Shown here piece by piece: positions 19,640 to 25,402 of a stretch of 52,899 nucleotides of DNA (the stretch's first letter is position 1; each line of letters begins with the position of its first letter). A program made the position numbers and the translations under genes. The stretch is taken from assembly GCA_046542505.1 (NCBI GenBank), contig JBKHBH010000004.1, positions 1-52,899 of the forward strand. Reading direction: 5' to 3'. The notes under the pieces were generated by a model. That model searched no databases, was not told the origin of the DNA, and worked only from the letters and a program-made list of their open reading frames with translations. The DNA is from Thermovirgaceae bacterium (GTDB taxonomy: Bacteria > Synergistota > Synergistia > Synergistales > Thermovirgaceae).

Positions 19640-20854
19640 TCATGCCCCGTATTTCGCGAGGCGACGGGCATGGGCGAGCATGAGACCCATGAGTTTGAAT
19701 GCGGGTATGTTCCCCAGGCTCCCCCGGGCACATGCTCTTTCACTGAAGGCTTCGCTGTCATCGGTCCGCACGAAGGAGCTTTTGAGAAGCATCGGCGACG
19801 GATGCCATGAATGGGAAGCCAGTTTCGCCGGCGTGCTGTGATCCCCCGTTACAGCGATCACATCCGGGCGAAGTTCGAGCAAATCTGGCAGCAGGCGGTC
19901 AACCTGCTCGATCACATCAACCTTGGCGTCAAAATCCCCATCTTCACCCCTGCTGTCAGTGTATTTCACATGAACAAAAAAGTAATCACTGGCGTCCCAC
20001 TGGGATTTCACGATTTCCACAAGATCCGGAAGATCCCGGGCCGGCTCGGCCACCTCCATTCCCACAAGGCTTGCAAGCCCCCTGTACATAGGATAGGAAG
20101 CGACCGCAAGAGGATGAATCCCGTAAAGATCCCTCATTTGCGGGATGTCTGGCACGCCGGAAAATCCGCGGAGCAAACAGCCGTTCGCCTTGTCTTCCCC
20201 TGAAAGGACCTTCCGCACTTCCCGGATAAGGGCGTTTACGGTTTTGGCCGTTTTTTGACCTTCAGGAGCCGTGGCCTCGGACCATTTCATCGGCTTGCCC
20301 TCAACCTGCGGGTCGGCGTCGGAGACGTTTTCGGACAGGTCCTCTCCAGACAGGACGACGACGAACCGGTGTTCGAGTCCCGGGTAAAAGCGGACCTTGA
20401 CGCCGTCGATTTCAGAGATCGAGCGTGACAGCTTTTCTACGAGTTCTCCGCTGGTCTCCGTGTCGATACGACCCGCCCGCCTGTCGAGGATGACATCCTG
20501 CTCTTTCCAGGTGGCGAAATTGCCGCGAGCGCAGATTTCTCCTTTTTTTACCTGCGCTCCTATGCCAAGAGCTTCGAGGATGCCCCGACCGATGGAAAAC
20601 TCAAGGGGGTTATAGCCGAACAGACCGAGGTGACCAGGTCCGCTTCCTGGTGTGATGCCCGTGTCCACGATCTCGAGAAGGCCCGTCTCCCCTGATGCTG
20701 CCAGCTCGTCGAGGTTCGGCGTCCATGCTTTCTCGAGCTCTGTCCGGCCTTCCGGTCCAGGCAATCCGCCGAGACCGTCCATAACGAGCAGGACCATCTT
20801 TGTCTGGTTTCCCACCGCGAGCGACTTCAAAACTTCCAGCCGCGACATTGTCAT
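19640..20854 (-). CDS. apgM: 2,3-bisphosphoglycerate-independent phosphoglycerate mutase (ApgM type)
   Basis: DGLG, TPNLD, PGSGPGHL.LFGY.P, GRG.LEA.G, HVK.TD..GEDG, TGDHSTP, HSWHP. Confidence 0.92.
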   Translation of the reverse strand: MTMSRLEVLKSLAVGNQTKMVLLVMDGLGGLPGPEGRTELEKAWTPNLDELAASGETGLLEIVDTGITPGSGPGHLGLFGYNPLEFSIGRGILEALGIGAQVKKGEICARGNFATWKEQDVILDRRAGRIDTETSGELVEKLSRSISEIDGVKVRFYPGLEHRFVVVLSGEDLSENVSDADPQVEGKPMKWSEATAPEGQKTAKTVNALIREVRKVLSGEDKANGCLLRGFSGVPDIPQMRDLYGIHPLAVASYPMYRGLASLVGMEVAEPARDLPDLVEIVKSQWDASDYFFVHVKYTDSRGEDGDFDAKVDVIEQVDRLLPDLLELRPDVIAVTGDHSTPAKLASHSWHPSPMLLKSSFVRTDDSEAFSERACARGSLGNIPAFKLMGLMLAHARRLAKYGA

Positions 20855-20942
20855 CTGCAAGCACCTCCTGAAAAAGCTCTTCTTGTCGGAAGTTCCATTG
20901 TTTGAACATACACCCCGAAGTCTCGTCTTGTCCACTTTGCCC

Positions 20943-21575
20943 TCACAAGGAGAGCTGTACTTCACGATTGAAGGGCGAATCCGACCAAAAGATGTCTCCA
21001 AGCAAAAAAAGGGTGACTCCATCCTGGTTCAACCTGACACCGGTGATAGAGGCGTTGGCCAGCTCAAAGCGCCAAAAACCCGAAAGGGGAAGCCCGAGCC
21101 AGGCACACAAAAGAACCTTGAGCACGGCGTCATGGCTCACGACGGCAACAGGATCGACATTGCAGGAAGACACCTCTTCCATGGCCTTCAGGGACCGGAC
21201 CTGGACATCTTCGAGGGATTCCCCACCCGGCATGACAACCTTCTGGGGTGTCTCGCGCCAGAGCCTGTAAAGACGCGGCCATCGGCGCGCCACGACATCG
21301 ACCTTCAGGCCTTCCCATTTCCCATGCCTGATTTCACTCAGGCCTTCTTGCACACGGACACGCAGCCCTTTCTTCCGGGCAAGGACGGCGGCCGTCTCCC
21401 CCGCCCTGGAAAGGGGGCTTGACCAGATGGCGGAGAAAGGGATCACAGCCGCCCTTTCGGCCATTGCCTCAGCCTGGGCCCGCCCTGTTTCATCCAGGGG
21501 GATGTCCCGCCCCCCCTGAAAAAGTCCCTGCGCGTTCCATGCGGTTCGACCATGGCGGATCAGGAATATGTCCAT
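20943..21575 (-). CDS. Histidine phosphatase family; likely metal-independent phosphoserine phosphatase (PspA-like)
   Basis: RHG.T.WN...QG, SSPLSRA, EI.HG.WEG, VSH; directly downstream of serA. Confidence 0.8.
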   Translation of the reverse strand: MDIFLIRHGRTAWNAQGLFQGGRDIPLDETGRAQAEAMAERAAVIPFSAIWSSPLSRAGETAAVLARKKGLRVRVQEGLSEIRHGKWEGLKVDVVARRWPRLYRLWRETPQKVVMPGGESLEDVQVRSLKAMEEVSSCNVDPVAVVSHDAVLKVLLCAWLGLPLSGFWRFELANASITGVRLNQDGVTLFLLGDIFWSDSPFNREVQLSL

Positions 21576-21577
21576 CC

Positions 21578-23212
21578 TTAAAGACCTTCCTCCAATCTGA
21601 CCGACTCCGCCCAGAGCAAATCACCCACTGATCTGAGACGCTCGAGCACCGAGGGGTGGACATCGGAGTCGACCTGCAGCACTCCCAGGGCAAGGCCGCT
21701 GCCGTTTTTGCGTCCCAGGGCGAAATTGGCGATATTGATGCCCAGTTCGCCAAGCAATGACCCTACCTTTCCAATTACACCTGGTCTGTCGTGGTTCTGG
21801 AAAACGATCAGGTTTCCCTCGGGGACGCAATCGATCCAGTATCCGTTGATATTGACGATCCTGTGTTTCCCGTCTTCCGTGACGGTTGCCGTGATTTCCA
21901 CCGCTTGGCCCTCCCCGGCGAGCTTTAATTCCACCGTGTTGTGGTAGGTCGATGACGGTCCTGTGCCTTCCTCGACCTGAAGCCCCCGTTCCGCAGCTAT
22001 CAGGGGTGCTGACATGTAACTCGTTTCCGGGCCGTGGCGGACCTCAAGAACTCCCTTGAGGGCTGCAACGGCGTATGCCGAATTTCTGCAGGGGTTTTCA
22101 AAACAGACAATGCTTTCATCATCAAGGAGACCGCCTCTCCTGTTAAGGGTCATGCGCTCCGGTGGGGCTTCCATGATGGACCCAGCAAAAGCACCTATTT
22201 TCCTGGAGAGGGATAGAAACTTTCGCCGCGCAGGTGGCAGACGGTGCTCCATGAAGGGGAGGTTGACCGCATGTTCGTAAGGTTCACCCTTCAGGGCCGC
22301 AATGAGGTTCGACGCGGCTATTTCCGAAACCGCCGACTGGGCTTCCTTGGTGTTGGCCCCGATATGAGGCGTCAAAACGACCCGATCGCGCAGGTCGTCA
22401 GCGAAAAGCGGGTGTTCAACCGGAGGTTCCGATGAATAGACGTCGAACCCGGCCCCCGCCAGACGTCCTTCCCTGAGAGCCCCTGCACAGGCTGTTTCGT
22501 CTACAAGACGTCCTCTGGCACAATTGATCAGAATCGCCCCGTACTTGAAGGCCCGAAGCATCCGCTCGTCGATCATGTCCCTGGTTTCGTCCGTCATGGG
22601 CGTATGAAGGGTGACGACGTCGGCGAGCGCCAGGGTTCCGGCAAGGTCCGGCACCAAAGACACACCAAGGTCCTCCGCCCGTTTCTTCGAGACGTAAGGA
22701 TCGTAGGCCAGGACGCTCATGCCGAAAGCTTTCGCCCGGGCCGCCACACGGCTCCCGATCCTCCCCAGACCTATGATAAGCAGGGTTTTTCCTGCCAGCT
22801 GCGTTCCAATAAAGGGCTTCCTCTCCCACCGGCCGCTGACGAGCGATCGATGCGCCTGGGGAAGTTTTCTACAGACGCCCAGCATAACTGCGAAGGTGTG
22901 TTCCGTGGCGGCAAGGGTGTTCCCCGTCGGCGCGTTGATAACGACGATGCCACGCCTGCTCGCTTCGGTGAGATCGATGTTGTCCACCCCGACACCTGCC
23001 CTGGCTACGGCCCTGAGATGCTTGCCTGCAGCCAGGATTTCTCCGTCCAGAGGAGTCCCGCTTCTGGTGATCATGGCATGAACGTCGGCAACGGCCTCAA
23101 GGAGTTCCCCCCGGGACATGCCCATCCTCTGTTTCAGTTTGACAGAGGGGTCCGAGGAAAGAATCCGGAGGCCCGATTCATGTACAGGTTCGGTGACCAG
23201 AATATCCCACAT
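21578..23212 (-). CDS. serA: D-3-phosphoglycerate dehydrogenase (long form, ASB + ACT)
   Basis: RAGVGVDNID, NAPTGNT.AA.EH, G.GRIG, NCARG, TPHIGA.T.EAQ, DRPGVIG ACT; TGATG coupling. Confidence 0.95.
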   Translation of the reverse strand: MWDILVTEPVHESGLRILSSDPSVKLKQRMGMSRGELLEAVADVHAMITRSGTPLDGEILAAGKHLRAVARAGVGVDNIDLTEASRRGIVVINAPTGNTLAATEHTFAVMLGVCRKLPQAHRSLVSGRWERKPFIGTQLAGKTLLIIGLGRIGSRVAARAKAFGMSVLAYDPYVSKKRAEDLGVSLVPDLAGTLALADVVTLHTPMTDETRDMIDERMLRAFKYGAILINCARGRLVDETACAGALREGRLAGAGFDVYSSEPPVEHPLFADDLRDRVVLTPHIGANTKEAQSAVSEIAASNLIAALKGEPYEHAVNLPFMEHRLPPARRKFLSLSRKIGAFAGSIMEAPPERMTLNRRGGLLDDESIVCFENPCRNSAYAVAALKGVLEVRHGPETSYMSAPLIAAERGLQVEEGTGPSSTYHNTVELKLAGEGQAVEITATVTEDGKHRIVNINGYWIDCVPEGNLIVFQNHDRPGVIGKVGSLLGELGINIANFALGRKNGSGLALGVLQVDSDVHPSVLERLRSVGDLLWAESVRLEEGL

Positions 23213-24360
23213 CACGCTTCCTCCTTCGCGAAAACCTCTAGACATTTCCCGAGATCGGGTTCTTTCACAGGTATTTTCGCTTTTTTACAGGCGAACAAAA
23301 AAGACCCCAGCAAGAGGCAGACTTCAGGCCACCCTTCGCCACAGAAATGACCGATCCTGAGGATGTCGCCCTTCAGTCCGCCCTGGCCGCCGGCAGTTTC
23401 AATCCCGAGATCCCTCAGAATCTCTCTCAGGTCATCGGCACGCTTTCCGGGAATTTTCACCGACGTAACACCGGGCGAACGAAAGGTACCGTCGGTCACG
23501 AAAAGTTCCAGCCCCATACCAGAAAAACCTTCAACCAATGTCCTGGCAAAGCGCCTTGCCGCTTCAAACCGCCTTTCGTATCCGGTTCTTGCCAATCCGT
23601 CGAGCGCGGCGTCCAGGGCGCGAAGGATGGTAACCGGCGGTGTATAGGGAAAAGAGGGTTCTTCCTTTTCCAATGCCGAAAGCAATGCGCTGAGATCAAA
23701 AAAGACCGTCGGAGCGGACAACCCTTTGCTCAAGACATCCCGGGCCCGGCTCGAAAGCCAGAGGATGCCCAGTCCCGGCGGTGCCCCAAGACCTTTCTGG
23801 GAACATGATGCCATGGCGTCGATACCCCATTTTTCCGGATAAACGGGAACCACGCCGAGGGAACTCACTGCGTCGACCAAAACGAGAGGTTTTCTGTCCG
23901 GCAGAGCCCGGCAGATCTCTTCAATCGGATTGAGAACGCCCGTGGAGGTTTCATTGTGAGTCAAAAGCAGGAGATCCGCATCAGGAAAGCTCCGGCAAGC
24001 GTTTGCCACATCGTCCGGAAGACACGCCCGGCCGGGCTCGATATCGAAGGGCATAACCTCGGCGCCCCGCCTTCTGACGATTTCCCTAAAGCGGTCTCCG
24101 AAGACTCCGCAGGAGAAGGAAAGCACCTTGCTGTGGGGCCCGACAAGATTCACCGCCAGTGCCTCCAGGGCCCCCGTGCCCGACCCCGGAACAACGGGCA
24201 CAGGACATCGGGTGCGCAAAAGGTCACGCAACCTGTTCTGGAGCCTCAAAAGCAGCGCAGGGAACTCCCTGCTCCTGTGGCTCGTCACCGGCTCAGCCAT
24301 GGCCGCCTGCACTGCCGCATCAAGCTGAACCGGCCCGGGCGTAAAAAGGTATTTTGTCAT
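23212..24360 (-). CDS. Class V (AGT/SPT-like) aminotransferase; probable phosphoserine aminotransferase
   Basis: LFTPGPV, SHRS..F, SGTGALEA, HNETSTGV.NP, VDAVSS, SQKGL..PPG, RIGH. Confidence 0.88.
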   Translation of the reverse strand: MTKYLFTPGPVQLDAAVQAAMAEPVTSHRSREFPALLLRLQNRLRDLLRTRCPVPVVPGSGTGALEALAVNLVGPHSKVLSFSCGVFGDRFREIVRRRGAEVMPFDIEPGRACLPDDVANACRSFPDADLLLLTHNETSTGVLNPIEEICRALPDRKPLVLVDAVSSLGVVPVYPEKWGIDAMASCSQKGLGAPPGLGILWLSSRARDVLSKGLSAPTVFFDLSALLSALEKEEPSFPYTPPVTILRALDAALDGLARTGYERRFEAARRFARTLVEGFSGMGLELFVTDGTFRSPGVTSVKIPGKRADDLREILRDLGIETAGGQGGLKGDILRIGHFCGEGWPEVCLLLGSFLFACKKAKIPVKEPDLGKCLEVFAKEEA

Positions 24361-24386
24361 GGGATAAAGCCTCCTTTCAAAAGTTC

Positions 24387-24417
24387 AAAAAAAAAGGACC
24401 GGAACATGTCCGGTCCC
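24387..24417 (-). terminator. Intrinsic terminator inside the 5' leader of the serine operon (attenuator)
   Basis: GGACCGGA-CATGT-TCCGGTCC followed by T9, ending about 26 nt before the start codon. Confidence 0.85.
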
Positions 24418-24593
24418 CTCTGGGTCTTTCTGTTTCAGGGCTGGTTAAGGGTTACTCCAGGTGCTCATCGAAACCGGACTCCATATCAGGACATATTCTT
24501 GCGGCGAAACTGCAAGAGCCTGATCCAGAGCCGGAAATTCCGCTGGCAGGAAGAACCGCGGTGCGATTTTTGAGCATCCCATGCGCCACCCTT
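24387..24593 (-). ncRNA. Candidate cis-regulatory leader RNA, class unassigned
   Basis: Long closing stem, two internal hairpins and a terminator/antiterminator alternative; see findings. Confidence 0.55.
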
Positions 24594-24611
24594 TAAAAAA
24601 ACGTTGCGCCA

Positions 24612-24640
24612 TGTATACCACGGATATTTGCTTCGGTCAA
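24612..24640 (-). promoter_or_regulatory. Putative promoter of the leader and serine operon
   Basis: TTGACC-N17-TATACA with TG extended -10. Confidence 0.5.
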
Positions 24641-24763
24641 GCACAAAAGGCTGCGGACACCAAAAGGTGATGAACGCAAAAAACAGGGGGTTTAGCGGAT
24701 GTCGAAAAAGGCGACTTGCTATAATATAGAAAAGAATCAAAGAATCCGAAGGGGGTGTCCCCC

Positions 24764-25402
24764 GTGAAAAAAGCAAAGGCCCTATTGTTGGCGCTGACAC
24801 TCCTGTTCGCTTTGGCCGTTATTCCTGCCGAGGCGGGGATCGACAGTGCCGCCGTCCCCCGGATATGGGAGAGACTGACATCCACCGCCGGTATCTCCAA
24901 TGCGGGTCCCGTCCATATGGAAGAAGAAAAAACGCCGAATGCCTGGGTATCTTTCCAGGGCAATTCATACTCTGTGCACGCTACAACGGGTCTTCTTGAC
25001 ACTCTCAAGACGCAAGACGAACTTGCAGGCGTCCTCGCCCACGAAATCGGTCATATAAAAAGCGGCCACTACAATCAGGTGGTGGGACGAAGCCTCCTGT
25101 GGTACCTTCTCTACAGGGTCGTCAAAGACGAAAGCGATCTTGCCCAAGGTGCCTTCGGGGTCGGAATGGCCCTGGCGGAAGCGGGTTTCAGCAGGGAACA
25201 GGAAATCGAGGCCGATATCTACGGGGTAAAGCTGGCGACAAAAACCGGATACGATCCCTGGGGCCTTTACAATTCCATGTTGCGAATGAAAAAGGCCGGT
25301 TACAAAACTTCTCCGAGCGGATTCAATTCCCATCCACCGACGGACCGCCGGTTGACACGCATCAGACAGGAGACGGAGGCCGTCGTCGCCTCGAGAAAAT
25401 AA
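24764..25402 (+). CDS. M48-family zinc metallopeptidase, exported
   Basis: Signal peptide; PNAW, ELAGVLAHEIGH, FSREQE.EAD, SHP. Confidence 0.9.
   Translation: MKKAKALLLALTLLFALAVIPAEAGIDSAAVPRIWERLTSTAGISNAGPVHMEEEKTPNAWVSFQGNSYSVHATTGLLDTLKTQDELAGVLAHEIGHIKSGHYNQVVGRSLLWYLLYRVVKDESDLAQGAFGVGMALAEAGFSREQEIEADIYGVKLATKTGYDPWGLYNSMLRMKKAGYKTSPSGFNSHPPTDRRLTRIRQETEAVVASRK

Follow-up and report, generated by a model that had tools for sequence, protein, structure and literature searches.

Ribosome-mediated attenuation is textbook knowledge for Trp, His, Phe, Leu, Thr, and Ile/Val, and the classical leader-peptide attenuators of enterobacteria serve the trp, his, pheA, thr, leu, and ilv operons. 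The mechanism is summarised in excerpts of PMC9413887 and PMC1183508. Two RNA controls are known for serine, a T-box (excerpts of PMC8002221) and the unexplained serC element (excerpts of PMC1273637). The T-box is Ser-specific and lies upstream of serA in Paenibacillus polymyxa, according to the excerpted text of PMC8002221, and the serC element bound none of the ligands tested, according to that of PMC1273637. Full-text literature searches returned no published serine leader-peptide attenuator, with one 2010 attenuator survey falling outside their coverage. They likewise returned no published description of the element studied here, which agrees with the original prediction that had presented it as possibly undescribed.

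We analysed a window of 52,899 nucleotides from a Thermovirgaceae bacterium of the order Synergistales (contig JBKHBH010000004.1), whose minus strand carries a leader located between a divergent M48 peptidase gene (24755–25402, plus strand) and a class-V aminotransferase gene (23212–24360). We consider it highly likely that this leader is a ribosome-mediated (leader-peptide) serine transcription attenuator, not a riboswitch. The putative promoter of the original prediction (24612–24640, minus strand) is present in the sequence and consists of a −35 box TTGACC (24640–24635), a 17-nt spacer, and an extended −10 element TGnTATACA with its hexamer at 24617–24612; the −35 box, the spacing, and TGnTATACA occur at the same place in all six genus members. 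A consensus promoter scan did not list this TTGACC/TATACA promoter because its −10 lacks the final T, and the scan rule requires T at −10 position 6. Transcription would start near 24605. At the other end of the leader, the first gene begins with an ATG at 24360 preceded by the RBS AAAGGAGG (24377–24370), the two together occupying 24360–24377 on the minus strand.

Between promoter and gene, the minus strand exposes a second RBS, AAGGGTGG (24586–24593), positioned 8 nt before an ATG at 24577; its GGTGG is invariant in the genus alignment. This ATG opens a leader reading frame (24452–24577, minus strand) of 41 codons plus a TAA that ends at 24452, which the original prediction had missed. The 5′ leader holds a short frame with its own RBS and start codon. 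Seven of its codons specify Ser (codons 12, 15, 17, 19, 21, 23, and 34), and the first six constitute the regulatory codon cluster (24509–24544, minus strand), cognate to the end product of the pathway encoded by an operon that holds SerA. Specifically, the clustered Ser codons are AGC, TCC, TCT, TCA, TCT, and AGT, none of them adjacent, spaced every second or third codon with four Gly codons interleaved. When the 300-nt upstream region was dinucleotide-shuffled 100 times, one shuffle matched this density of six Ser in 12 codons.

All six genus members keep the frame open, and its start and stop fall in shared alignment columns, corresponding to the invariant columns GATG and GTAA/GTAG; the sole indel, a 12-nt insertion in genome G005, preserves the frame. 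The two remaining frames each contain stops in five of the six members. Variable sites are distributed 21/25/28 over the three codon positions with no clear third-position excess, a pattern that fits selection acting on Ser codons and RNA pairings only and that does not prove coding. The maximum reaches only five Ser in 12 codons in G005 and G003, a value attained by 26 and 23 of 100 shuffles, respectively. The Ser signal of the genus is weaker than that of other genera, and the window's own signal is moderate. Taken together, the RBS, the ATG, the fixed stop, the in-frame indel, and the Ser cluster point to a translated mini-gene rather than an aptamer.

The RNA structures overlap this frame. 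The anti-antiterminator hairpin (regions 1:2; 24469–24542, minus strand), predicted with RNAalifold, is built from a 5′ arm (24542–24510) that coincides with the Ser cluster (24544–24509) and a 3′ arm (24504–24469). The region 2 core, GUCCGGUUUC (24470–24479, minus strand), falls in leader codons 33–37, ends 15 nt upstream of the stop codon, and has two alternative partners, region 1 and region 3. In the alternative pairing, GUCCGGUUUC (24479–24470) and GGGACCGGAC (24417–24408) form ten base pairs, two of them G-U, yielding a region 2:3 duplex of −14.8 kcal/mol versus a shuffle mean of −10.6 kcal/mol, with eight of 200 shuffles as good. Regions 3 and 4 form an intrinsic terminator (24387–24420, minus strand) of −19.0 kcal/mol with a stem at 24420–24409/24403–24392 and a T9 run at 24395–24387; it separates the leader frame from the first structural gene and is conserved in the genus. 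The overall layout, 1:2/2:3/3:4, is that of trp/his-type attenuators. The long hairpin (24542–24469), the GC-rich terminator with its U9, and the 10-bp pairing exclusive with that terminator had all been proposed from the single sequence and are borne out here, the first two with conservation in the genus. An outer closing stem and a short CCGC/GCGG hairpin, also proposed, are not conserved (66.7% of cells paired, equalled by 44 of 500 shuffles).

Conservation in relatives had been named as a check on the proposed structure, and RNAalifold keeps both the long hairpin and the terminator across the six genus sequences. In the six-genome alignment, 93.2% of cells are paired versus 35–58% with partners slid; six pairs change on both sides, and none of 500 shuffles reaches the observed covariation score, counts that rest on six related sequences and are indicative only. 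The helices of the long hairpin (helices 3–5) have 95–100% of cells paired, with two pairs changed on both sides. Of the 60 genus cells of the antiterminator helix, 49 are paired, most failures coming from one misaligned sequence, and the helix displays no covariation in the six-sequence alignment because both of its strands hardly vary. The single-sequence fold exceeds chance by a modest margin only (z −1.71, with 11 of 200 shuffles equalling it), and the weight therefore rests on conservation. A further predicted long-range helix joins the leader RBS (24586–24593) to 24444–24437 on the minus strand, just past the leader stop, with 95% of genus cells paired and one pair changed on both sides. 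In the predicted fold, this helix might limit re-initiation, confining leader translation to an early round.

In a BLAST-type search of 61 related genomes, the leader was recovered from all five same-genus genomes at 67–77% identity, with nothing real beyond the genus, the one other match measuring 22 nt. Genus members score 209–246 bits with a covariance model of the genus, and nothing outside the genus exceeds 31.6 bits; weak full-length matches (17.6–22.7 bits) nonetheless lie directly upstream of the orthologs in G013, G018, G012, and G015. From a metagenome pattern scan, 80 of 119 stretches were tested against this model, and among those tested only one (L104) matched; it is near-identical to G003 and adds no covariation. 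A locus search with the aminotransferase alone returned only two distant loci at 34% identity and was uninformative. The Ser-rich frame is kept across the order while the nucleotide sequence is not.

Within the genus, G003 and G004 have ~100 extra nucleotides between the attenuator terminator and the gene (L006 ~1737–1850 and L007 ~1742–1860, respectively). The extra nucleotides hold a second hairpin with a T-run, plus a further GC-rich hairpin, and may represent a second control element in tandem.

A scan against all 4227 Rfam families, another check attached to the original prediction, gave zero matches at gathering score in the window. Over the leader itself, only three terminator-driven matches appeared at E ≤ 10 (E 0.6–4.3), and 20 related loci yielded no match. 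RF00517 and the Rfam His, Leu, Thr, and Trp leader families gave no match at E ≤ 10. RF00514 is named in an excerpt of PMC9413887. The absence of Rfam matches also agrees with the earlier reading that the leader carries no T-box, glycine, SAM-I, ZTP, THF, or lysine consensus.

The region has been picked up once before. In the portion of table S1 of Stav et al. 2019 that covers Thermovirga lienii (PMC6429828), the region between Peptidase M48 (<) and Class V aminotransferase (>) is entered as “Unnamed, ?, 1 example”. The gene context is the same, so the element had been noticed before and left unexplained. The same portion lists further unexplained regions before tryptophan synthase beta, homoserine dehydrogenase, and acetohydroxyacid synthase (PMC6429828), which may be other amino-acid attenuators of the lineage.

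Selection of this intergenic region by a structured-RNA screen in a relative is what a metabolite-binding riboswitch would also lead one to expect. Here, the hairpin would be an aptamer for serine or a related compound, and the ligand would stabilise the 1:2 pairing and favour the terminator. The conserved long hairpin and the mutually exclusive pairings accord with this mechanism, and Rfam, with no known-family match, leaves room for a new class. However, the leader has neither a multi-stem junction nor a conserved unpaired core, and its nucleotide conservation collapses outside the genus (≤31.6 bits), the opposite of aptamer behaviour, whereas the frame, its RBS, and its Ser codons persist across seven families with different sequences. 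Nor would an aptamer account for an indel that keeps the frame or for the invariant start and stop. No curated aptamer matches the leader and no core is kept across distant hosts, and we regard a riboswitch as extremely unlikely. The original idea of an attenuator responding to serine thus survives in part: exclusive pairings do precede a serine operon, and the signal is very probably serine supply, but the ligand-binding aptamer is not upheld.

The structure could also be selected by a protein or by uncharged tRNA-Ser, in a T-box-like manner, with the frame incidental. Some Firmicutes have serA or serC under T-box control (excerpts of PMC8002221), the present genome contains three T-box-like matches elsewhere (62.9–79.9 bits, below the cut-off of 93), and the 5′ motif AGGGUGGC is similar to the beginning of the T-box sequence given in an excerpt of PMC8002221. 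Nevertheless, RF00230 finds those three other places and none at the leader locus, even at E ≤ 10; the GGGUGG in question is the 5′ RBS of the frame and not an antiterminator bulge beside the terminator; and no repeated protein-binding motif was seen in the leader, making a protein- or tRNA-dependent switch very unlikely. The three T-box-like matches lie at G000:C132:3383–3603 (−), C54:4541–4795 (+), and C126:34–290 (+), and the genome probably uses T-boxes elsewhere.

We then consider the leader-peptide attenuator across the order. Across 121 genomes of the order, a search for the aminotransferase gave a match at E ≤ 1e-30 in 73. Orthologs were defined as the 48 genes at E < 1e-80, the rest (28–39% identity) being taken as paralogs, and up to 450 nt upstream of all 48 orthologs was read. 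A leader was called by rule as the best Ser window in a stop-free frame with an in-frame start after a Shine-Dalgarno-like word. This rule identified a leader frame at 40 of the 48 loci, with at least six Ser in 12 codons at 35 loci and at least seven at 25. At three more loci the frame is seen by eye only (G034, G014, and G066), two are cut by a contig end (G007 and G017), and three of the 48 orthologs (G109, G099, and G039) lack a convincing leader. The 40 rule-based leaders span seven of the eight families holding an ortholog, the genomes being related, so that order-wide counts overstate independence.

Ser counts are well above both controls. The mean maximum of Ser in 12 codons is 6.70 on the forward strand, whereas the reverse strand gives 3.77 and shuffled sequences 3.88 (47 upstream regions, G017 being left out as too short; 100 dinucleotide shuffles each), and Ser ranks first in clustering among the amino acids in 34 of the 47 regions. 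A terminator hairpin with a T-run was found by rule at 44 of 48 loci, a few of them mis-placed. Thirty-six leaders combine a rule-based frame with a downstream terminator; G028, G019, G037, and G032, with T-runs shorter than the rule, were left out. Compared with the long ORFs of this genome, these 36 leaders are richer in Ser (24.1% versus 6.0%), Gly (12.9% versus 8.9%), and Cys (4.8% versus 1.2%), and a Trp codon lies within or next to the Ser window in 15 of them. TCN accounts for 300 of 335 leader Ser codons versus 72% genome-wide; TCN codons are reported to be sensitive to serine limitation in Bacillus subtilis (excerpts of PMC3862929). Other genera have Ser runs of 5–8, whereas Ser is interleaved with Gly in this genus, and the peptide sequences diverge widely between families, Ser runs excepted.

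The leader may be multivalent, sensing how much is demanded of the serine pool overall and not serine alone, because Gly, Cys, and Trp, all made from serine, are enriched or lie near the Ser window. Constraints on RNA structure (UCCGG, UGG) could explain the Gly, Cys, and Trp enrichment too. A genome-wide scan of G000 for further leader frames with terminators was noisy. Its only stronger Ser hit (G000:C109:6780–6879 (+), L092), with nine Ser in 10 codons, lies opposite a 244-codon frame that contains an acidic run, on the antisense strand, and is an artefact and not a second Ser leader.

The conserved frame might instead encode a functional small peptide rich in Ser, Gly, and Cys, with the terminator ending its transcript and the operon relying on its own downstream promoter, an arrangement for which the ~100 extra nucleotides in G003 and G004 would provide space. 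The T-run and the aminotransferase ATG lie only 26 nt apart in the window, and no promoter-like site was found between terminator and gene but one weak match that overlaps the RBS. Moreover, the peptides differ widely between families outside the Ser runs, and the frame always immediately precedes the same operon and shares sequence with the alternative hairpins. We judge a functional peptide extremely unlikely.

To evaluate the leader-peptide attenuator in silico, we masked the footprint of a ribosome and computed the pairing of region 3. When the whole leader was folded at equilibrium with a masked ribosome, the terminator formed in every case and the ribosome positions could not be told apart; the switch must therefore be kinetic, requiring kinetic coupling. 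The transcript was accordingly ended just after region 3, and the probability that region 3 is paired upstream was calculated for the 36 leaders. With the ribosome on the Ser codons, this probability has a mean of 0.74 (0.79 in the window), falling to 0.47 (0.44 in the window) when the ribosome has reached the final three sense codons or the stop; the first position gives the higher value in 33 of 36 leaders. With the ribosome absent, the mean is 0.71 and the window value 0.41. In this model, default termination is supported for the window and not order-wide, given the no-ribosome mean of 0.71. For the window, these in silico values fit an antiterminator strand that is freed by a stall on the Ser codons and hidden otherwise. 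Region 2:3 duplexes have a mean z of −1.8 relative to shuffles, with z below −2 in 13 of 36 leaders; at most 10 of 200 shuffles are as stable in 16 of 36, and the duplex is no better than shuffles in five of 36. Region 2 lies 10–50 nt before the stop codon in most leaders, where, by this geometry, a terminating ribosome would cover it.

We propose the following mechanism. Transcription would start at the conserved promoter, and a ribosome would load at AAGGGTGG and translate the 41-codon frame. When seryl-tRNA is plentiful, the ribosome would pass the Ser codons to the stop and cover or flank region 2; alternatively, it would be released, allowing regions 1 and 2 to re-pair. Either way, region 3 would stay free to pair with region 4, the U9 terminator would form, and the polymerase would halt before the operon. 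When seryl-tRNA is scarce, the ribosome would stall on 24544–24509, the 5′ arm of the 1:2 hairpin, freeing region 2 (24479–24470) to pair with region 3 (24417–24408) as it emerges. This 2:3 pairing would block the terminator and let the aminotransferase-serA-phosphatase-apgM operon be transcribed. The sensor would most likely be the ribosome reading Ser codons, in other words charged tRNA-Ser. We infer the translation of the frame, the stalling at Ser codons, and the regulatory outcome. At the level of sequence, the leader displays every computationally testable feature of leader-peptide attenuators, and its regulatory response is a prediction.

The operon under this putative control (19640–24360, minus strand; annotated with Pfam and NCBIfam) encodes four proteins on the minus strand. 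The class-V aminotransferase (23212–24360) is assigned by Pfam, with its best NCBIfam matches all far below their cut-offs. It is followed by SerA (21578–23245; NCBIfam TIGR01327, 568.6 bits, cut-off 454) and by a histidine-phosphatase-family protein of 210 residues (20943–21575) that scores 145.5 bits against the PspA model (cut-off 350) and 156.1 bits against the CobC model, just below 162.9. The last product is an apgM-type phosphoglycerate mutase (19640–21022; PRK04135, 589 bits, cut-off 468). Together, the four products could run from 2-phosphoglycerate to serine. The operon looks like a complete non-canonical serine pathway with a class-V aminotransferase in place of SerC, and the dPGM/PspA-like histidine phosphatase may stand in for SerB. 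We see about an even chance that the leaders form an order-wide (Synergistales) family of Ser attenuators on a complete non-canonical phosphoserine pathway operon, the first classical one for serine biosynthesis.

If true, a conserved attenuator based on Ser codons would fill a gap among the amino acids of the classical set, bring the mechanism to a little-studied phylum, and explain the “Unnamed, ?” region of a published screen. It would also offer a testable handle on when amino-acid-fermenting bacteria make their own serine. A caution follows for similar predictions, as structured leaders with a hidden reading frame can pass for orphan riboswitches. The mechanism is textbook, and our literature searches found no published serine case.

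Like the classical attenuators, the leader combines a cluster of product codons in a short frame, here with predicted translation, with three overlapping pairings and a terminator before the operon. Unlike the enterobacterial examples, the amino acid is serine, interleaved with Gly in this genus, and the host belongs to Synergistota; the frame extends across the two arms of the 1:2 hairpin and ends past region 2, and no Rfam leader family matches. As proposed for our locus, the P. polymyxa T-box has low seryl-tRNA charging relieve a terminator before serA. It differs in binding uncharged tRNA through a specifier codon and a 14-nt T-box sequence, according to excerpts of PMC8002221, whereas the proposed codon reader here is the ribosome, and RF00230 is without a match. 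The alpha-proteobacterial serC element RF00517 is likewise an RNA element directly upstream of a serC-serA operon (excerpts of PMC1273637), but it is described in those excerpts as a short two-hairpin motif thought to hide the RBS, with neither a leader frame nor a terminator (PMC1273637). Another comparable system is uORFC-8-2, a Cys-codon frame before cysS in Rhodobacterales that is also a lineage-restricted candidate for ribosome-mediated attenuation from comparative genomics (excerpts of PMC8632094). From the same excerpts (PMC8632094), uORFC-8-2 likewise has a start codon, a terminator, and regulatory codons in tandem within the first stem, and it differs in serving another amino acid, preceding a tRNA synthetase gene, and belonging to another phylum.
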